From the NCBI GenBank assembly GCA_023659975.1, contig JAGXOI010000001.1, positions 1-48,268 of the forward strand: 48,268 bases of DNA, given 5' to 3'. The number at the start of each line of letters is the position of its first letter. Within the stretch, counting starts at the first letter, position 1. Made by a program: the position numbers and the translations under genes. Below are positions 635 to 47,084 of the stretch, piece by piece. The notes under the pieces are model-generated. The model was not told the origin of the DNA. It saw only the letters and a list, made by a program, of their open reading frames with translations, and made no database searches. This DNA comes from Candidatus Aenigmarchaeota archaeon LH_S4. Lineage in GTDB: Archaea > Aenigmatarchaeota > Aenigmatarchaeia > QMZS01.

Positions 635-1900
635 ATGCGCTGGCTGAAAAATTTATTTAAAAAAACTAAAGTTGGGCAGATAAATAAACCAAAAGAAAAA
701 CAGATAGTTAGTTTTGATAAGATTAGTGATTTTCTTGAAGAAGAAACAAAAGAAAAGAAAGCTGAATTTGACTCAAAAATTAAAGAATTTAGATCTCTTT
801 TCATTGATTATTTGAGGAGGCTAAATAAAGAGTTTACAGAACTTGAAACAGCTAAATTTGATAGGATAATCTTAGAAGATAAGAGAGATATTTCAAACAT
901 AATAAAAACCAGTAGGAAAAACTATTGCTACAATTCAAAAAAAATGTTTGTTTTGGCTTTGGACTCTCTACAGAAAGAGAGTGATCCATATCAAATGAAA
1001 TCTATTATTTCGGAACTTTTTGATAGATTGAATAAGTTTTCAAGAGATGCTCAAATTCTTCTGAATCCTTTTCAAAAACAAATGAAAAAAATATCTTCTG
1101 ATCTAAAAAAACTCAGGAAAGAACTTGATGATTTTGACCTCTTTCTTACTGGGGAATATTCACTAATCCAAAAAGAGAAAAAAGCAAGAGAACTCTTAAG
1201 TAAAATAACAAAATATAGATTAGACAATAAACAAAAAGAAGATAAAAAGAAAGAAATTGATGAAAATATAGAAAAATTGAAGAAAGAAATTAAAGAGCAA
1301 AACTCTAAAATTCTGAAAATCCAGAATTCTAATGAAGCCAAAGAACTTAGGAATCTGGAAAAAAAACAAATTTCTCTAGAAAGACAAATAGAAAATATTA
1401 TCTCGGATACAACCTATTCTGTAAATTCGATAAGTAGGCAAATCAGAGAATATCTGTATATCGCCAATAAAAAAGAGAGGGCAGGTATCAAGGCTTTTTT
1501 GGAAAATCCTGAAATTTTACTTGGAAGAGAACAAAGGTTTTTTGAAGAGATTGCGAAGAAAGTAAAAAATAACATAAAAAAGATAGAAAGCAATGAAAGA
1601 AAAAGAAAAAAATTTTTGGAAATTGAAAAGAGGGTTGTACTCTCATTAAATAAAAATAAAAGGGAATACAAAATAATTTCAGATAGATTAAGAGAGAATA
1701 TAAGAAAAATTAAAAAACTGAAACAGGAAATAACCACAGAAAAAGAAGAGCAGGAAATTGCAAAATTAAGAGAACAGATACAACACTTGGAAAAAAATAA
1801 AAAAGAACTTGAATCAGAAGAGGTTAATAGGAAGGGATTATTAGAGGATTTAGAGAAAATACTTTCAGATATTTCTGGGAAAGAAATTAGAACAAAATAG
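635..1900 (+). CDS. Lys/Glu-rich coiled-coil protein, function unknown
   Basis: Long ORF with heptad-like K/E-rich composition. The start is moved to ATG 635 (MRWLKNLFKK) to avoid overlap with rpl21e. Confidence 0.5.
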   Translation: MRWLKNLFKKTKVGQINKPKEKQIVSFDKISDFLEEETKEKKAEFDSKIKEFRSLFIDYLRRLNKEFTELETAKFDRIILEDKRDISNIIKTSRKNYCYNSKKMFVLALDSLQKESDPYQMKSIISELFDRLNKFSRDAQILLNPFQKQMKKISSDLKKLRKELDDFDLFLTGEYSLIQKEKKARELLSKITKYRLDNKQKEDKKKEIDENIEKLKKEIKEQNSKILKIQNSNEAKELRNLEKKQISLERQIENIISDTTYSVNSISRQIREYLYIANKKERAGIKAFLENPEILLGREQRFFEEIAKKVKNNIKKIESNERKRKKFLEIEKRVVLSLNKNKREYKIISDRLRENIRKIKKLKQEITTEKEEQEIAKLREQIQHLEKNKKELESEEVNRKGLLEDLEKILSDISGKEIRTK

Positions 1901-2033
1901 CCCCGCGCGGATTCGAATACCGCCGAACTTCAAAAAGTTCGATCATTTACACTATCTTCGACTTCGTCTCAATAGGCTCTCCGCGGTCTTGAGATCCAGG
2001 GTCTCAAATGCTTGGCCACTACACTACGGGGCT
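1898..2033 (-). tRNA. tRNA-Gln(CUG) with a 63-nt intron in the T-arm (1918-1980, position 53/54)
   Basis: Minus strand reads AGCCCCG TA GTGT AGTGGCCAA GCAT T TGAGA CCCTGGA TCTCA AGAC CGCGG [intron] TTCGAAT CCGCG CGGGGCT A. It has A1:U72, and the cloverleaf closes only after removing the insert. Confidence 0.8.
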
Positions 2034-4066: not shown

Positions 4067-4348
4067 TTAAATTCCTAAATATTTTATTTTGAATGATTTA
4101 AATTCTCCAGAGGCTGGCATAAACTTTACTTTTAATTCCTGGACATTAATCAAATTTTCCTTTAATTTTACTGCTTTAGCAAAGTTTCTTAAAACTTTTT
4201 CTTCCCCTTCTGCAACAATTTTTACTTCCCTATTTTCTAAGTTTTCTACATAACCAACAACTCCAAATTCTTCTGCGATTTTCCTGACTCTACTCCTATA
4301 ATTTACTCCTTGAACTTCACCTTTTGCAATAATTTCTATTCTTTGCAT
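4067..4348 (-). CDS. acyP: Acylphosphatase
   Basis: 93 aa with the GEVQGVNYRSRVRKIAEEFGVVGYVENL signature. Confidence 0.85.
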   Translation of the reverse strand: MQRIEIIAKGEVQGVNYRSRVRKIAEEFGVVGYVENLENREVKIVAEGEEKVLRNFAKAVKLKENLINVQELKVKFMPASGEFKSFKIKYLGI

Positions 4349-4550
4349 AATGTCTTTTATTGTTTAAACAATATTATAAGTTTTGAACTTTTTAATTTTT
4401 AACTATGACATATAATTATTTGGTGATTTAGTAGCAGATATATCTTTAATTCCTGTTTATCCAAATTTTAACAAGGTTTGTTTTAATCACTTGTTAGGTA
4501 TATAACTTAAAAAGGGAAAAAATTTTATTAAAAAACTAAAATATAAAAAA

Positions 4551-26336: not shown

Positions 26337-26532
26337 ATTTGGTGTTTTTGTGGTGATAAATACCACATAGCTAAACCTTTTTCCAATGTTCTTCTCTAAA
26401 TTCCTATTTTTTTCCCAAATTACTTGCTGTTGATTTTCCAATCGTAAGAAGTTTTATATAAACTTTGGTTTCATTATCTGTTAAACCAATTTTTTGGGTT
26501 AATTTAGATTCTAATAGATATGCTGATTTGAG

Positions 26533-26607
26533 GTGTCGCAAGTGAAACTGCTAATTTTATCACTTTCGCAGTCTCGCCTTGCGAGTCAACCTTTTTTAAA
26601 GGCTGAC
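26533..26607 (-). ncRNA. Structured hairpin RNA module, copy A (23S 3' trailer)
   Basis: Minus strand reads GTCAGCCTTTAAAAAAGGTTGAC then TCGCAAGGCGAGACTGC-GAAAGTGATAAAATTA-GCAGTTTCACTTGCGA. It is homologous to 30466-30523 and 44601-44669. Confidence 0.5.
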
Positions 26608-26631
26608 AAGGAATAGAGTATCTATTTGTTG

Positions 26632-29705
<3,074 letters not shown>

Positions 29706-29902
29706 GCAACAAATAGATAATACTCTCCTTACACCTATTTTAATCATTGAGTACGAATAGATACTCTTTAGAAGATTTCTTAATATCAATAAGAAACCTT
29801 TCAACATAATATGATATAAAAGTTATATATAAGAAACCTTCACTAAAAACTTAGTTAATAATATCTAATATTGATAGATATTTACAGAATTAAACTAAAA
29901 TT

Positions 29903-30412: not shown

Positions 30413-30753
30413 TGGACCTGGAGGGATTTCCAGAACCTTTTGATAACCAATATCCCTGTTTGGAGTGTCGCAAGGTGAAACAGCCAATTTTATCACTTTC
30501 GGTTTCGCAGTCTCACCTTGCAATTTGGCCCTTGCTAACCCATTTCATATTTGGGGTGCAGACCTTTTCATTTACTGCACCGAAAAGGGTTGCTTTTTAA
30601 AGGCTGACTTTGAACCCTCGGCCTCCGCCTGTTTTGGCTTGAGTTTTTAAAAGTCACACTTGCAAAGGCGGCATTCTACCAATTGCTCAAAACTACAATT
30701 TGAAAGCCTACCAAACTATTTTTTGTGTTGTAGTTTTACTGAACTACAGGCCC
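30413..30753 (-). tRNA. tRNA-Ala(UGC) with three introns: D-loop 30684-30738, anticodon 30630-30659, T-loop 30427-30608
   Basis: GGGCCTG TA GTTC AG[55 nt]ATTGGTA GAAT G CCGCC TTTGCAA [30 nt] GGCGG AGGCC GAGGG TTCAAA[182 nt]T CCCTC CAGGTCC A. The G3:U70 alanine identity pair is present. The gene is 341 nt for a 74-nt tRNA. Confidence 0.8.
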
Positions 30754-31647: not shown

Positions 31648-31706
31648 CTTAGGAACCTCTCTTTAATTAATATTTTTTAAATATTCATCTTTAGAAAAAG
31701 GTTCAA
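31648..31706 (-). other. 59-nt intron in the 16S 790 loop
   Basis: The universally conserved GGATTAGATACCCGGGTAGTCC is split as GGATTAGA[59 nt]TACCCGGGTAGTCC. The insert is AT-rich with terminal complementarity GAACCT...AGGTTC. Confidence 0.8.
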
Positions 31707-35756: not shown

Positions 35757-38700
35757 TTACTTCACTCCTTTGATATATCCTTTAAACCAATTTAGCCACC
35801 TGTTGTAAATTTCCTTTGAATCCAAAGCACCTGATTCTTTTCTAACTTCTTCAGAGAAAGTATGAAACATAGAATTTGAGAGGATAACATTACTTGCTTC
35901 CATGATACTAGGTTTCTTTGTTTCAACTGCAGTTTTTACAATTGTATCAAGAATATCTGCTCTTAGCTTGATATTACTCCAGACAGCATCCCAATCTCCT
36001 CTCCATTCTTTAACATTTTTTGCAATAGAATTTATTATTTCACTCTCACCAGCTAAAAGAGTTGGGGTTGGCTCTAGCTCATCTTTTTTAGCATTATATT
36101 CAAGCAAATTAACAAAACCTTTTTCTTCTGCAGGATCTTTTTTCCAGTGTTTCCTAATTTCTGTAAATTCAACTGTTCTTCTAAAAGAATGTAGTCCATC
36201 AGCACTTTTTAAGGTATTGTTTATAAGTATCAGGTCTGTTGCTTTGAAACTTGTAGGGGGGACCCCCAAATCATTTACAACTCTATCAAATAAACCATAA
36301 GCACTTTCTCCATGTATAGTTCCTGCAACAACATTAGCCATTGCACCAATCCTCATTGCCTCATAAAGAGCCAAAGCTTCCTTGCTTCTTACTTCACCAA
36401 TTATCAGACAAGAATCTCCTAACCTTAAGGATACTCTCAAAACTTCTTCGGCAGGCAGTTCAGTTTCAACCATTGTAATCACTGATCTTGATTTTAATCT
36501 TGTTATATTATATCCAATTTCCCTAAATTTTTTTAAGGGTAATTCAAGAGTATTATGAGCCAAGATATTTTCACACACAAAATTCTCATTCTCAGGAACA
36601 GAAAAATCATAAACATATATCTCTGATTTTACTTTTTTTACACTAACAACTCTATCCCAAAAAATATCTGAATATGCTAATTGTTTTAGAAAAGTATATA
36701 GTTTATTTTTATCTGGTATTTTAGGGATTAATTTTTTCAAATATTCTCTTCCAATATTATTTCTCCTCTTTATATAATCATTTTTATTAAAATCTTTACA
36801 TACCCGGGCCATTTCTTTTTTTAGTTCTATAGACAAGGGTATTATATCTGCAGAGTCATTTGTAGATATTTTGGAGCAGAGCTTCTTAAGTTTTTTTCTT
36901 TTCTTTTCTATAAGTATTCCAATTTTCTCCCTAAAATTTTTCTGGGATTTTAAGCTGGAAATATCTGCATTAAATGTTCCGTCTTTTCTTCGGTTATTGC
37001 TTTTCCTGAGAATTATATCGTAATCCAGAAGTAAGGTTTGCAAGTCATATAATAGTTTTTCTGAAGTTAGAGGGATTACAATTTCTTTTTCACTCACACA
37101 CCCGTCTCCGGAGAATATTCCCCTCAAAACAAAAGATATCTGCTCTTTAGATAAATTATATATCCATTCAGGGACTTCTTTGGTATAAGCATTACCCTTT
37201 AAATTTAATACATCCTGCATAACTATTTTGAGTATATCCGAAGAGATTATTGAGGTAAAAGTATCAGAATGCATCTTAACCCTAAGATCAAGCTTTTTTG
37301 CCACGCTTCTTACAACTCTTCTTAATTCTTCTTCAACCACTGAAATTAGAACACTCCGCTTATCATAGCACCCATCTGCTATCCATAGTCCAATAAAGGT
37401 TAAAAAATCTTCATTCAGGGATATTTTTGTTGGTATGGGTTGGCCCCCACTCCTGGGTTTAATTTTGATATTTTTGAAATCAAAACTTTTTTTGTTTAAT
37501 TTTACAAAAACTTTCACAGGCAAAATACCTTTTCTTTTCCAATAGGAGCATAGTTTTTCAGAGTAACCCAACTTCCTCGAGACTTTCTTTATTTCTGTCC
37601 CCTGCTCTTTTATTAACCCCTGGATTTCTTTTCCCTTCAGATAGAAATTTTTTAATTTTTCTAAGTGTTCCAACAGATTTACTGAGTCTTTCCTTCTGTT
37701 GTTTACCCTAAATATTCTTGGAACTACAATAAAATTACCTTCTTCTAAGTCTCTAACCCTAATTTCTTCCAAAATTCTTTTGTTACCTATAGAAAAAAGG
37801 GAGTGGTCACCAGTTACTTTTATCTTCCGACCAGTTGATGTTAAAATTTCATAAATGTCTTTATTTGTCTTGTGTCTGATAAAAGAACTCACTTTTTTAA
37901 ATTCTATTTTACCTTCTTTATTAATTGAGCAAATTTCTATTTCATCTTTTATATCTGTTGCTCTGACAATATTTCTTTCATTCTCTATTCCTGGTTTATA
38001 GTTCTTAATTAGCTCATCTATCAAATTACCAATCTTTGTCTTCTCAATTTTCCTGTTTCTTTTAATCAGGATTATAGAATCTCCTGTGACACTATCCTCA
38101 ACCGAAATAATCCTTTTATTTTTCATTATTTGTGAGATTAGAGCACCTAATAAACTTGTTTTTCCTGAACTTCTTGTTCCACCAACCAACATAGATCTTC
38201 CACCATCTATTATAAACCAAAGCAGTCCACCAGCAAGAGGATTTAGCATTTTTTGGGAGATAAAGAGAGGGAAGGTCCAAGGTTTTTCCCTGTGCCTTCT
38301 CAAAGCAAAACCAAGACCTTCCGGGGATAAAGTCTGCATTATTGCACAAACTCTCGCCCTCCCACCAGGAACAGAAATTTCAGTATCCAAAACAGGGTTT
38401 GCTTCATCCAAAGGTCTTCCCGAACTTAACCTCAATCTTGTTGCTAACAATTCTGCATCCTCTTTTGTTTGAGTTATGTTTGTCTGACATTCACCATATT
38501 TCCCATGATAAAGGTAAGTTGGTGCAGAGCTTGGGGGTGAGTTGACATAGACATCCTGAACATTATCATCAGACAAAAGTAATTCCAGAATCCCGATTCC
38601 AGCAGTATATCTAACAAGAATATTTGAAATAATTTTTAGTTTTTCTTCTGGGATATTAGATGAACCTGAAAGATCTCTTAACATATCAAGACCAATATTA

Positions 38701-39539
38701 TAAAAACTTTTTCTCACTTCTTTTGAAGCAAATTCTTCTCTTTCCAGGGGTCTATGCCTTGCCATATATCTCTTTGCCTTGTCAAGTAGCTCATATTCTT
38801 TTTCTTCTAAACCAAATTCTAGCGGAATAATATGATACAAAGTTCTTATTTCATTTGGTATTTTATAAATCTCAACTTTTGCATCCTGGATTTGATAATT
38901 GTCAATTAGTTCTGCTTTTTCTGGGGGGGTTGCCTGATATTTTGTGTAAGTGAAATTTGGTCTGACAGAGGGAATAAAAAACTGCCTGTAAACTGACCGG
39001 TCTCCAACTTTATATCCGGGCAAAAATCCAAGACTTTTCTTTATTAATGTTGTTTCCTCTAATAACTCTTTTAGGGGAATTAGTGAATTGTTAAGATAAT
39101 GTTCATAACATTCCTTGCAGATTCCTTTTGTCCTCTCACCCAAAACCTTTGTGTGTCTTATTCTTCTTACTAGTAGAACGTACGCACCTACAGGGTCAGT
39201 CTTTAATTTTCCCAGAATTGTATTTTGCAAAAAATCCATTCTTTTAGAAACACACCGGTCACACTTTTCTATAACCAGATTTTTTTTGGAAAACAATTTT
39301 AGATCCCTTGTTATCTTTTCATAAAGTTTGGCAATTTCAAGCAGCATCTGTGTCTGCTCAAAGTTGTATTCATACTCTCTCTCTTTTGATAAAACAATTG
39401 ATTTGGCATCTTTAACAGCAATTAAATAGTTTATAATCTCCGACATACATTCAGGAAAATCCTCTACTGAAGAGCCGTATATACAGTTTAAGCAATCTAC
39501 TTTTAAAACACCATCTTTATAAGTGTATTTTCCAGGCAT
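35757..39539 (-). CDS. Type IV pilus/archaellum-type (GspE/VirB11/FlaI family) secretion ATPase containing an intein
   Basis: Walker A GGTRSSGKTS. The Asp-box RIISVED | TLEL is split by the intein. The C-terminal part has GEVRSKEA and the His-box region. Confidence 0.8.
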   Translation of the reverse strand: MPGKYTYKDGVLKVDCLNCIYGSSVEDFPECMSEIINYLIAVKDAKSIVLSKEREYEYNFEQTQMLLEIAKLYEKITRDLKLFSKKNLVIEKCDRCVSKRMDFLQNTILGKLKTDPVGAYVLLVRRIRHTKVLGERTKGICKECYEHYLNNSLIPLKELLEETTLIKKSLGFLPGYKVGDRSVYRQFFIPSVRPNFTYTKYQATPPEKAELIDNYQIQDAKVEIYKIPNEIRTLYHIIPLEFGLEEKEYELLDKAKRYMARHRPLEREEFASKEVRKSFYNIGLDMLRDLSGSSNIPEEKLKIISNILVRYTAGIGILELLLSDDNVQDVYVNSPPSSAPTYLYHGKYGECQTNITQTKEDAELLATRLRLSSGRPLDEANPVLDTEISVPGGRARVCAIMQTLSPEGLGFALRRHREKPWTFPLFISQKMLNPLAGGLLWFIIDGGRSMLVGGTRSSGKTSLLGALISQIMKNKRIISVEDSVTGDSIILIKRNRKIEKTKIGNLIDELIKNYKPGIENERNIVRATDIKDEIEICSINKEGKIEFKKVSSFIRHKTNKDIYEILTSTGRKIKVTGDHSLFSIGNKRILEEIRVRDLEEGNFIVVPRIFRVNNRRKDSVNLLEHLEKLKNFYLKGKEIQGLIKEQGTEIKKVSRKLGYSEKLCSYWKRKGILPVKVFVKLNKKSFDFKNIKIKPRSGGQPIPTKISLNEDFLTFIGLWIADGCYDKRSVLISVVEEELRRVVRSVAKKLDLRVKMHSDTFTSIISSDILKIVMQDVLNLKGNAYTKEVPEWIYNLSKEQISFVLRGIFSGDGCVSEKEIVIPLTSEKLLYDLQTLLLDYDIILRKSNNRRKDGTFNADISSLKSQKNFREKIGILIEKKRKKLKKLCSKISTNDSADIIPLSIELKKEMARVCKDFNKNDYIKRRNNIGREYLKKLIPKIPDKNKLYTFLKQLAYSDIFWDRVVSVKKVKSEIYVYDFSVPENENFVCENILAHNTLELPLKKFREIGYNITRLKSRSVITMVETELPAEEVLRVSLRLGDSCLIIGEVRSKEALALYEAMRIGAMANVVAGTIHGESAYGLFDRVVNDLGVPPTSFKATDLILINNTLKSADGLHSFRRTVEFTEIRKHWKKDPAEEKGFVNLLEYNAKKDELEPTPTLLAGESEIINSIAKNVKEWRGDWDAVWSNIKLRADILDTIVKTAVETKKPSIMEASNVILSNSMFHTFSEEVRKESGALDSKEIYNRWLNWFKGYIKGVK
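36552..38093 (-). other. 514-aa intein with LAGLIDADG homing endonuclease domain
   Basis: It starts SVTGDSIIL (Ser1), has block B VTGDHS, LAGLIDADG motifs FIGLWIADGCY and LRGIFSGDGCV, and ends ...ENILAHN followed by +1 Thr. Removal restores ISVED-TLEL. Confidence 0.85.
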
Positions 39540-41239: not shown

Positions 41240-41437
41240 TGCGGGAGGGGAGATTCCCGAAACTTGTTTTCTTTGAAGTGTTGGACTTTCTTTTTTTAAA
41301 AAGAAAAGCCTTATTCGAACTCCCGAACCGACTTACGGACAGAGTCCTAGGCCCTGCGCCTTTTTATGTAAACTTCTTCTTTTTGACCTAAAAGTTTTTC
41401 TTGAAAGAAAAAGCCTTGACCACTTGGCTACCCCCAC
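41240..41437 (-). tRNA. tRNA-Leu(UAG), type II, with two introns: D-arm ~41358-41415 (55 nt, junction ambiguous) and T-loop 41254-41313 (60 nt)
   Basis: GTGGGGG TA GCC AAGTGGTCAA GGC[intron]G CAGGG CCTAGGA CTCTG TCCGTAAGTCGGTTC GGGAG TTCGAA[intron]T CTCCC CTCCCGC A. Confidence 0.75.
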
Positions 41438-44523: not shown

Positions 44524-44798
44524 TGAGCCTGGGAGGATTTTCAAATTTTGTTTCTTTTTATCTTGAGTGACTTCATTCATTTTTGCATAGCAAAAATGAT
44601 GCACCGTTTTCTGAAAGAAAACGAGTGTTTTGTCACTTTGCTCCAATGCTCGTCTTTCAAACGGCACCCATTTTGCTCTGCAAAATCAGGAACCTCAACT
44701 AAAAAAGAAAAGCCTTACTTGAACCCCCAACACCTGGATCCGAAGTCCAGTGCTCTATCCAATTGCCCAAAACTGCAGTTTTATTGAGCTACAGGCCC
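44524..44798 (-). tRNA. tRNA-Arg(UCG) with two introns: D-loop 44764-44783 (20 nt) and T-loop 44539-44718 (180 nt)
   Basis: GGGCCTG TA GCTC AA[TAAAACTGCAGTTTTGGGCA]ATTGGATA GAGC A CTGGA CTTCGGA TCCAG GTGTT GGGGG TTCAA[180 nt]AT CCTCC CAGGCTC A. Confidence 0.75.
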
Positions 44799-44856
44799 AT
44801 AACTTAAGATTGTTTTCTAAAAAACTTAACCCAAAAACATATTTTAACTTAGAATT

Positions 44857-45375
44857 ATGAACATAACTCTAATTGGCATGGCTGGAGTTGGAAAAAGTAC
44901 CCTGGGAAAAAAGTTGGCAAGAAAATTGAATTATAAATTTATAGATACAGATAAGGTAATTGAAAAAAAGGTTAATTTAAAACCTCAACAAATAATAGAC
45001 AATTTCGGTGATAATGAACTTTTAAAAATAGAGGAAAAATGTGTTTTAGAGTTAGGTAAACTTGATAATTATATAATTTCTTCTGGAGGGAGTGTAATCT
45101 ATTCTTCGGAAGCTATGAAATTTATTAAAAATAATTCTACTGTTATTTTTTTGAATGATTCATTTAAAAACATACAAAGCCGGCTTACAAATCAAAAAAC
45201 AAGAGGAATTATTGGCCTAAAAAATAATAATTTAATCCAGCTTTTTAATAATAGAGTAGTTCTCTACAAAAAATATGCAGATATAATTATTGATATTACA
45301 AACAAATTTGATGTTAAAGAGGTAATTGAGAAGATTATTAAAGGAGCTAAAAATAATAGTTATGCACTGGGCTGA
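44857..45375 (+). CDS. aroK: Shikimate kinase, AroK/AroL (P-loop) type
   Basis: MNITLIGMAGVGKSTLGKKLARKLNYKFIDTD and SSGGSVI are typical of bacterial-type shikimate kinase. Confidence 0.6.
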   Translation: MNITLIGMAGVGKSTLGKKLARKLNYKFIDTDKVIEKKVNLKPQQIIDNFGDNELLKIEEKCVLELGKLDNYIISSGGSVIYSSEAMKFIKNNSTVIFLNDSFKNIQSRLTNQKTRGIIGLKNNNLIQLFNNRVVLYKKYADIIIDITNKFDVKEVIEKIIKGAKNNSYALG

Positions 45376-46882
45376 TATTTTTTCGAAACAGGTTGTTGAA
45401 AAAAGACCTAAGGAAGAGTATGTTGTCGAAAGTGGGATCACTCCTTCAGGTGTTGTTCATATTGGAAATGTCAGGGAAATTTTAACACAGTATTTTGTTT
45501 ATCAGGGAATTTTAAAGTTGGGAAAGAAAGCTAAGTTTATTTATATCTGGGATGATTTTGACAGGTTCAGAAAAGTTCCTAAGGGGATTTCAGAGAAGTT
45601 TAAGGATTATATTGGAATGCCCCTGTCTTCGCTTCCTGACCCATGGAACTGTCACAAAAGTTATGCAGAACATTTTGAGTCAAAACTGGAAGAAGAAATA
45701 AAAAAGATAGGAATTGAAGTGGAATATATTTCAGCAACAGAGTTATATAAAAACGGAACTTTTGTTGAAAACATAAAAACCTCTCTTGAAAAAACAGAAA
45801 AAATCAAGGAAATTTTAAATAAATTCAGAAAAGAGCCTTTGCCTAAAGATTGGTTGCCTATAAATTTGTATTGTGAAAAATGTGGTAAGGATAGTACAAA
45901 AATAAAATATTTAGGTGATTATAAGTTATCTTACAAATGTAAATGCGGATTTGAGAATGAAATTGATTTTAGAAAAACAACAGATGCAGTTAATCTTAAA
46001 TGGAGGGTTGACTGGCCTTCCAGGTGGAAGTTTTTTGGAGTTGATTTTGAGAGTTCAGGAAAGGAGCATAAATCCGCTGGTGGGAGTTGGGATACTGCAA
46101 TTTTAATATCAAAAGAAGTTTTTGGTTATGAGCCTCCTCTAGGACCGATGTATGAATTTATTCATTTAAAGGGACAAAAAGAAAAAATGTCTTCATCAAA
46201 AGGAAATATTGTAACAATCTCACAATTATTAAAAATTTTTAAGCCATCGATTATTAGATTTCTATATACACAGAGACTGAATAAAACTATTTTCATTCCC
46301 TTTGATTTTGATATATATAAGGTATACAATGATTTTGATAGATGTGAGAAAATTTATTTTGGTAAGGAAGAGGGAGATGAAGAACTTAAAAGGAAATATG
46401 AGTTAAGTAAACTAGAAGATTATAAAACCTGTCCGAAAAGAATTTCTTTTTCTGAACTAACTTTTCTTGTGCAGTTTATATCCAAAGAAAAACTTAGAGA
46501 ATATTTAAAAAACTTGCTATTATCCAGAGGAGTTAAAGTAGATAAATTGGATTTAGACTTGGCCTTAGAGAGAGCGGATAGGGTAAAATACTGGATAGAA
46601 AATTATGCACCTGAAGAAATAAAAATAAAATTAAGCACAGAGAAAATTTATTTGACAGAGGAACAAAAAGAAATTATAAACAAACTCTCAGAAATTGTAA
46701 AAAAAGAAAGTTCAACAGAAGAATTGCAAAAACAGATTTTTGAATTAGCAAAAAATTATGGAAAAGGAGTTTTTGAAATTTCTTATCGGGTTTTAATTGG
46801 AAAAAATCATGGACCAAGATTAGCAATCTTAATTGATGCAATTGGAAGAGATAAAGTTTTGGAGAGATTTAGAAATTTATAA
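45362..46882 (+). CDS. lysK: Lysyl-tRNA synthetase, class I
   Basis: GITPSGVVHIGNVRE (HIGH-like) and KMSSSKG (KMSKS), with the Zn-binding CEKCGK...CKCG. The start is set at MHWADIF (45362). Confidence 0.85.
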   Translation: MHWADIFSKQVVEKRPKEEYVVESGITPSGVVHIGNVREILTQYFVYQGILKLGKKAKFIYIWDDFDRFRKVPKGISEKFKDYIGMPLSSLPDPWNCHKSYAEHFESKLEEEIKKIGIEVEYISATELYKNGTFVENIKTSLEKTEKIKEILNKFRKEPLPKDWLPINLYCEKCGKDSTKIKYLGDYKLSYKCKCGFENEIDFRKTTDAVNLKWRVDWPSRWKFFGVDFESSGKEHKSAGGSWDTAILISKEVFGYEPPLGPMYEFIHLKGQKEKMSSSKGNIVTISQLLKIFKPSIIRFLYTQRLNKTIFIPFDFDIYKVYNDFDRCEKIYFGKEEGDEELKRKYELSKLEDYKTCPKRISFSELTFLVQFISKEKLREYLKNLLLSRGVKVDKLDLDLALERADRVKYWIENYAPEEIKIKLSTEKIYLTEEQKEIINKLSEIVKKESSTEELQKQIFELAKNYGKGVFEISYRVLIGKNHGPRLAILIDAIGRDKVLERFRNL

Positions 46883-46932
46883 TAAAATAATCGTCACTAA
46901 AACAATTTAATAGGTTTATTTTGGAATTTTAG

Positions 46933-47084
46933 GGCCGGAAGTGGGACTCGATTATACTAACCTTTTTATTATATAAAAAGATTTACCCACCCTAAGGGAT
47001 TTCCATGAACATGACTAAATAGGCTCTCCACAGTCCCCTATGCTAACCTTATAGAGCCAGAAGCTTAACTACACTATCCCGGCC
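46933..47084 (-). tRNA. tRNA-His(GUG) with three introns: D-loop 47049-47067, anticodon 47001-47027, T-loop 46952-46984
   Basis: G(-1) GCCGGGA TA GTGT AGT[19]GGTTA GCAT A GGGGA CTGTGG[27]A TCCCT TAGG GTGGG T[33]TCGAGT CCCAC TTCCGGC C. The encoded G-1:C73 pair is the hallmark of tRNA-His. Confidence 0.8.

Follow-up and report, generated by a model that had tools for sequence, protein, structure and literature searches.

The window, i.e. the whole stretch of 48,268 nt that was analysed, is an entire contig of the 779-kb genome of Candidatus Aenigmarchaeota archaeon LH_S4 (G000 in the following), an archaeal genome with a G+C content of 32% that is 72% complete. Among public sequences, its class I LysRS is closest to those of metagenome-assembled genomes (MAGs) labelled Candidatus Aenigmatarchaeota, with at most 85% identity. 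The rRNA operon is located on the minus strand in the order 16S, tRNA-Ala(TGC), 23S, and the match to the LSU model exceeds the model length by about 110 nt, the 23S rRNA having an insertion in the conserved domain V. Five tRNA genes were identified in the window, all on the minus strand and with 11 introns in sum. The features are as follows.

30413–30753, minus strand: tRNA-Ala(TGC) gene with three introns in the 16S-23S spacer (parser; recognised by ARAGORN as tgc once spliced)
30683–30738, minus strand: D-loop intron of tRNA-Ala after nucleotide 15, 56 nt, D15 family with terminal inverted repeat (central 4-bp and outer 10-bp helix)
30631–30660, minus strand: canonical 37/38 intron of tRNA-Ala, 30 nt (absent from the orthologues of G002, G004 and G007)
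30427–30608, minus strand: T-loop intron of tRNA-Ala at 59/60, 182 nt (mosaic of repeat modules)
26523–26568, minus strand: module in the 23S trailer that is also contained in the T-loop intron of tRNA-Ala (the two copies 87% identical over 47 nt)
27077–27150, minus strand: two copies of the hairpin repeat ('A-unit') in the domain V insertion of the 23S rRNA (found when the rRNA operon was searched with the tRNA introns by BLAST)
44524–44798, minus strand: tRNA-Arg(TCG) gene with two introns, upstream of lysS (parser; recognised by ARAGORN once spliced; lysS synteny)
44763–44783, minus strand: D-loop mini-intron of tRNA-Arg, 21 nt (the two terminal D15 arms and the exon-pairing tail only)
44538–44717, minus strand: T-loop intron of tRNA-Arg, 180 nt (first 16 nt equal to the start of the tRNA-Leu T-loop intron)
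41240–41437, minus strand: tRNA-Leu(TAG) gene with two introns (parser; recognised by ARAGORN once spliced)
41364–41417, minus strand: D-arm intron of tRNA-Leu, 54 nt (common to tRNA-Leu(CAA) and a second tRNA-Leu gene on contig C26)
41254–41313, minus strand: T-loop intron of tRNA-Leu, 60 nt (identical in the tRNA-Leu gene of C26)
1898–2033, minus strand: tRNA-Gln(CTG) gene with one intron (parser; recognised by ARAGORN once spliced)
1918–1980, minus strand: T-arm 53/54 intron of tRNA-Gln, 63 nt (4-bp central helix; near-identical in tRNA-Gln(TTG) of contig C55 and in G010)
46933–47083, minus strand: tRNA-His(GTG) gene with three introns at 47049–47066, 47001–47027 and 46952–46984 (parser; recognised by ARAGORN once spliced)
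47001–47027, minus strand: anticodon-loop 37/38 intron of tRNA-His, 27 nt (first 10 nt equal to the start of the tRNA-Gln intron)

The T-loop intron of tRNA-Ala (30427–30608) is 96% identical over 114 nt to an intron of tRNA-Ala(GGC) on contig C70, and one of its modules is multi-copy across the genus.

The tRNA genes were detected with an intron-aware cloverleaf parser, which looks for paired acceptor strands within 720 nt of each other and then fits the three inner arms (D, anticodon and T), each with at most one excision, provided that at least three of the four central pairs of a bulge-helix-bulge (BHB) motif form. As the final parser demands a perfect 7-bp acceptor stem, T8 and G10, some tRNA genes are missed, and the 31 genes detected in G000 are a lower bound. 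All 31 are interrupted. They contain 57 introns with a total of 4,030 nt, 12 genes having one intron, 12 having two and seven having three. The favoured sites are position 15/16 of the D-loop (seven genes), positions 17–23 of the D arm, 37/38 of the anticodon loop, 53/54–55 of the T arm and 59/60 of the T-loop. Removal of the introns restores the canonical cloverleaf, and after splicing in silico ARAGORN recognises 31 of 31 genes with the expected anticodon. Without splicing, standard tools recover none of the five genes of the window (ARAGORN and Rfam on the raw sequence) and, of the 31 or more genes in the genome, five (ARAGORN; the Rfam tRNA model gives eight matches above threshold), so that tRNA-based completeness estimates and inferences on codon usage are badly biased for such genomes.

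The BHB criterion applied was two 3-nt bulges with a 4-bp helix between them at the exon-intron junctions, in strict or relaxed form. In the geometry used, the final six bases of the exon, and likewise those of the intron, consist of four helix bases and two bulge bases, the two sets of helix bases being complementary. All four central pairs are present in 44 of the 57 introns, of which 41 additionally have an outer helix of at least 2 bp; random excisions have four central pairs in 3.7% of cases, and the high score of the catalogue is partly circular because at least three of these four pairs had been required by the parser. Splicing and the exact cut sites are predictions from the BHB geometry and from intron-less orthologues, with which the predicted joins agree. 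Folding of an intergenic array of the repeats described below gave z = -1.95 with no obvious BHB, and the fold of the tRNA-Arg precursor was likewise not decisive.

The enzymes for splicing are encoded, as judged by homology. The splicing endonuclease EndA is a single-unit, alpha-type protein of 221 amino acids with N and C domains. Its closest solved relative is 1a79, the homotetramer (alpha4) of M. jannaschii, and it carries a 6-residue insertion near the catalytic region. The RtcB ligase was identified with 572 bits. A role of the shared intron modules as C/D box guide RNAs, such as the one encoded in the tRNA-Trp intron of other archaea, was also considered and rejected: no snoRNA or sRNA family exceeded the threshold in the window, and on inspection the modules are plain hairpins.

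A preliminary description of this DNA had reported three pairs of introns with shared termini. The D-loop introns of tRNA-Ala and tRNA-Arg are indeed inserted at the same site, after mature nucleotide 15, and agree in 9 of the first 10 nt and in 10 of the last 11 nt. The boundaries given were one base short at the 3' end. They were corrected to 56 nt (30683–30738) and 21 nt (44763–44783) from the BHB geometry and from the intron-less tRNA-Arg orthologues of G002 and G004, which read exactly as the predicted join. An A in the 5' arm of one intron where the other has G is offset by T versus C in the 3' arm, and the helix of 9–10 bp is kept. The exon contexts had been called non-homologous, which is wrong for this pair, since the D-arm flanks of tRNA-Ala, tRNA-Arg and tRNA-Phe are nearly identical. 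Moreover, the last six intron bases are constrained by pairing with the exon, so that the shared 3' terminus (its GRGC-AA part) is partly not independent evidence.

The two other pairs were recovered as described: the T-loop introns of tRNA-Leu(TAG) and tRNA-Arg begin with 16 identical nucleotides, and the 53/54 intron of tRNA-Gln(CTG) and the anticodon-loop intron of tRNA-His begin with 10. The His/Gln link thus amounts to 10 nt. A 12-mer from this intron start was found within a tRNA gene only in G010, the remaining exact matches in the family genomes being coding sequence. By local alignment alone, the Ala/Arg and the His/Gln pairs score within the range of shuffled introns; they are supported by the anchored matches and, for Ala/Arg, also by the relatives of these introns in other tRNA genes.

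Such relatives were found in G000 itself and in ten congeneric genomes, which were searched and the matches parsed; all genomes compared are incomplete MAGs. A third member of G000 is the 130-nt intron of tRNA-Phe(GAA) on contig C11, located at the same position. It has its 10 starting bases in common with the tRNA-Arg intron and its 12 ending bases in common with the tRNA-Ala intron. Across the genus the family, here called D15, always lies after nucleotide 15 and was found in no fewer than seven tRNA species, which belong to the isotypes Ala, Arg, Phe, Lys and Thr. It occurs in tRNA-Ala(TGC) of G002, G004 and G007, tRNA-Ala(GGC) of G001 and G007, tRNA-Arg(TCG) of G001, G008 and G009 besides G000, tRNA-Arg(CCT) of G010, tRNA-Lys(CTT) of G006 and tRNA-Thr(GGT) of G005. 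In the tRNA-Arg(TCG) orthologues the intron is 33 nt (G001), 36 nt (G009) or 128 nt (G008) long.

All members share one layout, which consists of a bulge base, an arm of 9–10 nt, a middle that varies, a second arm complementary to the first, four bases pairing with the D stem and two bulge bases. In this layout the inverted repeat of the element itself is the outer helix of the BHB and the D stem provides the central helix, with 4 central and 6–10 outer pairs. Before its last two bases the intron has four that pair with the 5' strand of the D stem, and this pairing is kept in hosts with GTTC as well as in hosts with GCTC. The ends and several blocks are conserved across genomes, while the middle varies by insertion or deletion of further hairpins. 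One short palindrome is present at both ends of the long forms, and the 21-nt intron of tRNA-Arg may be a remnant of recombination between two copies of the arm. A 14-mer from the start of the intron was counted 51 times in the 11 genomes when one mismatch was allowed (reversed control, 1), and 12 of 30 sampled copies lie at D-loop position 15/16. Further copies include a full one in antisense inside the anticodon intron of tRNA-His of G008, a 5' fragment with continuing family sequence in an intergenic region of G002 and a diverged one on contig C59 of G000.

Similar termini could also arise by convergence, from the AT-rich composition together with the need of the intron ends to pair with the exon in the BHB. 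The last six intron bases are in fact dictated by the exon, suffix matches of at least 7 nt are frequent among T-loop introns, and in local alignment, as stated, the Ala/Arg and His/Gln pairs do not stand out. All 1,596 intron pairs of G000 were aligned locally after trimming of one base at the start and six at the end, these being tied to the exon, and compared with 20 dinucleotide-shuffled replicates (31,920 pairs). Thirty intron pairs exceed the maximum of the 31,920 shuffled pairs; 20 of them join different isotypes and 14 join different arms of the tRNA. The 99.9th percentile is exceeded by 51 pairs, with 1.6 expected. At the threshold above every shuffle, 21 of the 57 introns (37%) have a partner in another isotype. 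Examples across arms are the D-arm intron of tRNA-Leu (41364–41417) with the T-loop intron of tRNA-Val(TAC), and the anticodon intron of tRNA-Gly with T-loop introns of tRNA-Gly or tRNA-Val. Intron starts are not constrained by the exon, yet seven cross-isotype pairs share identical starts of at least 10 nt, compared with a mean of 0.013 and a maximum of 1 in 300 shuffle sets. The supposition, set out beforehand as a possible refutation, that the termini are no commoner than composition and BHB constraints predict is thus at odds with the shuffle controls. Together with the internal blocks conserved across genomes, these controls practically rule out convergence.

The distribution of the introns among orthologous genes was determined at two D-loop sites. 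The gene of tRNA-Arg(TCG) adjoins lysS in G000 and in eight relatives, and these genes are accordingly positional orthologues. Four orthologues carry D15 (G000, G001, G008 and G009), and five have no D-loop intron (G002, G004, G005, G006 and G007). In tRNA-Arg of G003 this site is occupied by a 63-nt intron of a different family, which is found in tRNA-Thr(TGT) and tRNA-Tyr of G000. In a tree built from two proteins, LysRS and RFC, with weak internal support, the carriers of D15 in tRNA-Arg fall in both main clades of the genus. The polarity is ambiguous, as 3–4 gains or 2–4 losses plus replacement would be about equally parsimonious. The 15/16 intron of tRNA-Phe is present in G000 and absent from its sister G010, whose RFC protein is 95% identical, as well as from G004 and G013. 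The tRNA-Phe genes of G010 and G004 contain instead an intron of 12–14 nt, common to both, further along the D arm, and that of G013, a member of another genus, has no D-arm intron. The simplest reading is that the D15 intron of tRNA-Phe was gained in the lineage of G000 after its split from G010.

The comparison with sister genomes, which the preliminary description had proposed, has thus revealed empty, filled and differently filled orthologous sites, and the tRNA-Phe case reads as a gain. In the anticodon loop, the 37/38 intron of tRNA-Ala was absent from the three orthologues examined (G002, G004 and G007). Orthologues of tRNA-His were not recovered by DNA similarity or in the vicinity of lysS; one was encountered in G008.

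These observations bear on vertical inheritance, in which an ancestral tRNA gene already had the intron when it was duplicated and changed its identity to Ala, Arg and Phe. This is the best account of pairs within one isotype, i.e. the three tRNA-Leu genes, the two tRNA-Gln genes and the T-loop introns of tRNA-Ala and tRNA-Glu, and the first seven bases of tRNA-Ala and tRNA-Arg are alike. For the cross-isotype pairs, ancient paralogy of the host genes is contradicted by the tRNA identities and by the orthologues. Mature tRNA-Ala, tRNA-Arg and tRNA-Phe are 68–70% identical, which is in the ordinary cross-isotype range (median 63%, 95th percentile 73%), and their other introns are unrelated. The ends of their D15 introns, by comparison, match almost completely, so that the introns resemble one another more than the host tRNAs do. 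D15 is missing from five tRNA-Arg orthologues and from the tRNA-Phe of the sister genome. In addition, a 30-nt block at the intron start is identical between tRNA-Ala of G007 and tRNA-Arg of G008, whereas orthologous introns diverge strongly. Common descent by gene duplication is therefore highly improbable as the explanation of D15, and the earlier preference for intron spread over vertical inheritance is upheld, both by the occurrence of D15 in at least seven tRNA species and by its presence and absence among the tRNA-Arg and tRNA-Phe orthologues.

The similarity of the Leu/Arg and His/Gln introns appears to trace to a second module, a hairpin repeat of 50–65 nt that begins many introns at D, anticodon and T sites. 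Most introns of the catalogue start, at most three bases from the splice site, with purine-GCC (or GGC) followed by a run of T. This arm pairs downstream with a run of A followed by GGC, and represents one arm of the hairpin repeat. In G008 the full arm stands at the start of the anticodon intron of tRNA-His, and the 10-mer shared by tRNA-His and tRNA-Gln in G000 can be read by comparison as a shortened arm, as this 10-nt match suggests. A profile made from three copies of the repeat gave 41 matches. Seven lie within tRNA introns, each of them in the sense direction (two in Gly(TCC), three in Trp, and one each in Met and Lys(TTT)), and 34 are outside tRNA genes. Tandem arrays of at least three units lie between protein-coding genes on contigs C8, C10, C43 and C71, the array on C8 being flanked by a direct repeat of 15 nt, and numerous outside copies are located at contig ends. 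A third module occurs in introns of tRNA-Ala, tRNA-Phe, tRNA-Gly and tRNA-Val, is multi-copy throughout the genus, and was also found upstream of two genes of G000.

Because the hairpin module is found outside tRNA genes as well, the Leu/Arg and His/Gln introns may share cargo instead of descending from one intron. Extended to all families, this would mean that old and unrelated introns were later invaded by hairpin repeats like any other non-coding DNA, and that the shared sequences are silent on intron gain. The mainly intergenic location of the repeat (34 of 41 matches) fits such an account, as do the several tandem units in long introns (two in Gly(TCC), three in Trp) and the D15 element that lies within an existing anticodon intron in G008. 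So does site 59/60 of the tRNA-Arg T-loop, which is filled in 10 of 10 orthologues, with introns of 54–180 nt belonging to at least three unrelated sequence families. In D15, however, the common sequence is the intron's own terminal helix, and the intron-less orthologues are bare at the site, so that the whole intron must have come or gone. Single units can likewise make up an intron: the T-loop intron of tRNA-Lys(TTT) corresponds to about one hairpin-repeat unit, and so, essentially, does the 15/16 intron of tRNA-Phe in G008, where G004, G010 and G013 have an empty site. Shared cargo as the sole explanation is consequently considered unlikely.

The best explanation, with a probability of roughly 0.7, is that the shared termini reflect homology and derive from small inverted-repeat hairpin elements, which would multiply in the genome and become tRNA introns, or parts of such introns, that EndA excises. 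The vehicle of intron spread looks like small mobile hairpin modules. New copies would arise at the DNA level, and their arrival at the same D-loop site may be eased by the near-identical D-arm sequences of many tRNAs. A tRNA gene that already has the intron may pass it on by recombination over short homologies or by gene conversion, or the element itself may prefer this target. Survival would be limited to insertions able to fold into a cleavable motif. The middle of the intron is free to lengthen by further hairpin insertions or to shorten.

A bolder proposal is that the D15 element and the hairpin repeat are an undescribed kind of mobile element whose inverted repeat serves as the outer helix for EndA, that tRNA introns are born by its insertion and that the intergenic arrays act as a reservoir. 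With the inverted repeat in this role, insertions into tRNA loops and rRNA would be repaired at the RNA level by the splicing machinery of the host. This proposal is put forward tentatively and is on balance doubtful.

A mobilising enzyme was sought among the IS200/IS605 transposases. The sole tnpA gene (Y1 transposase, C5:20139–20507) has unrelated end hairpins and was rejected as mobiliser; its locus has no match to either module, and no transposase with matching ends was found in the 72%-complete genome. No consistent target-site duplication was observed at the tRNA sites. The modules resemble MITEs, REP/BIME and IS200/IS605-derived elements in being short, non-coding and multi-copy, in their inverted repeats or hairpins, and in their dispersed and tandem copies and their location at contig ends. 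Unlike these elements, they have no matching transposase ends and no clear target duplication. Also unlike MITEs and REP, many copies lie at one exact tRNA position in one orientation, and the inverted repeat doubles as a part of the splicing substrate.

Intron spread among tRNA genes is a known phenomenon of one other archaeal order, which is reported here from a new lineage. In Thermoproteales, the occurrence of similar introns in different isodecoders, at sites both canonical and non-canonical, was termed intron transposition, its mechanism being unknown (PMC4090602, citing Fujishima 2010; Sugahara 2008 as summarised there). For the arrival of archaeal tRNA introns at new sites, Thermoproteales supplied the first sequence evidence of copying. 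Both lineages share, as far as the summary in PMC4090602 goes, genes with as many as three introns, variation among closely related species, splicing that depends on the BHB and a mechanism thought to act at the DNA level. They also agree in that introns are related across isotypes (20 pairs in G000), that members of one family lie at different tRNA positions and that presence varies among close relatives. They differ in lineage, the genus belonging to DPANN, in the single alpha-type EndA as opposed to the crenarchaeal heterotetramer, and in the interruption of each detected tRNA gene in Aenigmatarchaeota. Modular hairpins in intergenic arrays, in a 23S insertion and in antisense within introns are a further difference, for which the search was made on the Aenigmatarchaeota side alone.

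A 2026 preprint (10.64898/2026.10.13.758758) used Thermoproteales as positive control, with 28% of introns in cross-type families, and found such families near absent in a census of Asgard archaea (1.5%, compared with 0.6% in shuffled data), leaving the route of arrival open. The present genome resembles the Asgard archaea in its approximately two introns per gene, in D-arm introns missed by standard finders and in repeated gains at BHB-competent sites. It differs in the 37% of introns with a cross-isotype partner above every shuffle, as against 1.5%, the metrics of the two studies being different and the comparison only indicative.

No paper on tRNA introns of Aenigmatarchaeota was found in the literature searched. 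New are the modular hairpin families with copies outside tRNA genes, and the empty, filled and differently filled orthologous sites among close relatives. The genus offers donor-like elements, one exact site in many tRNAs and an apparent gain that postdates the separation from a sister genome with 95% identity, which makes the mechanism testable by population metagenomics and in vitro cleavage assays. Kaneta 2018 (PMC5829648), whose scope does not extend to Aenigmatarchaeota or to intron sequence families, reported more disrupted tRNA genes and incomplete tRNA predictions for DPANN lineages with a loop-bearing alpha4 EndA. The EndA of G000 is similarly a single-unit enzyme with a 6-residue insertion, which is not equated with loop L3, and its tRNA genes are likewise missed by standard tools.

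In the 23S rRNA gene of the window (minus strand), about 110 nt are inserted in the conserved domain V region. Two units of the hairpin repeat, the 50-65 nt module with which many tRNA introns start, lie within this insertion, which is therefore probably an rRNA intron that is spliced out. The 16S rRNA gene is also interrupted, in the conserved 790-loop region, by an AT-rich insert of 59 nt with complementary ends. The insert begins in a way similar to the tRNA introns of this genome, which start with purine-ACC/GCC and a T run.

Window 26621-29717, minus strand: 23S rRNA gene
Window 27077-27150, minus strand: two hairpin-repeat units in the 23S insertion
Window 31648-31706, minus strand: AT-rich 59-nt insert in 16S rRNA

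The hairpin repeat also forms intergenic arrays in the LH_S4 genome, with at least three units in tandem and a period of 51-66 nt. A direct repeat of 15 nt flanks the array on contig C8. The hairpin repeat is often located at contig ends and therefore probably breaks assemblies. Within tRNA genes, the hairpin repeat occurs three times in the anticodon intron of tRNA-Trp (343 nt as assembled), which also includes 96 consecutive N. In the relative G008, the tRNA-His anticodon intron (approximately 190 nt) is a composite of both modules: a single arm of the hairpin repeat comes first, and after it the D-loop element, the terminal-inverted-repeat intron family of tRNA D-loop site 15/16, in antisense orientation.

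C8:3228-3379: hairpin-repeat tandem array
C10:13888-14059: hairpin-repeat tandem array
C43, about 4100-4350: hairpin-repeat tandem array
C71:12-190: hairpin-repeat tandem array
C56:1059-1472: tRNA-Trp gene
G008, contig C54 (locus L195), about 1340-1600: tRNA-His

tRNA-Arg adjoins lysS (class I LysRS) in eight congeneric genomes as well, and this conserved adjacency is therefore a handy anchor for comparing orthologues.

Window 44524-47083: cluster of tRNA-Arg(TCG), class I lysS and tRNA-His

In three tRNA genes, anticodon-loop position 33 is C, where U is nearly universal. The anticodon of the second Leu gene (contig C26) reads AAG.

C23:7109-7251: iMet tRNA gene with C33
Window 41240-41437: tRNA-Leu(TAG) gene with C33
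Window 1898-2033: tRNA-Gln(CTG) gene with C33

The ORF of a secretion-type ATPase harbours an intein, which in turn includes a homing endonuclease domain of the LAGLIDADG type.

Window 35757-39539, minus strand: secretion-type ATPase ORF, 1260 aa
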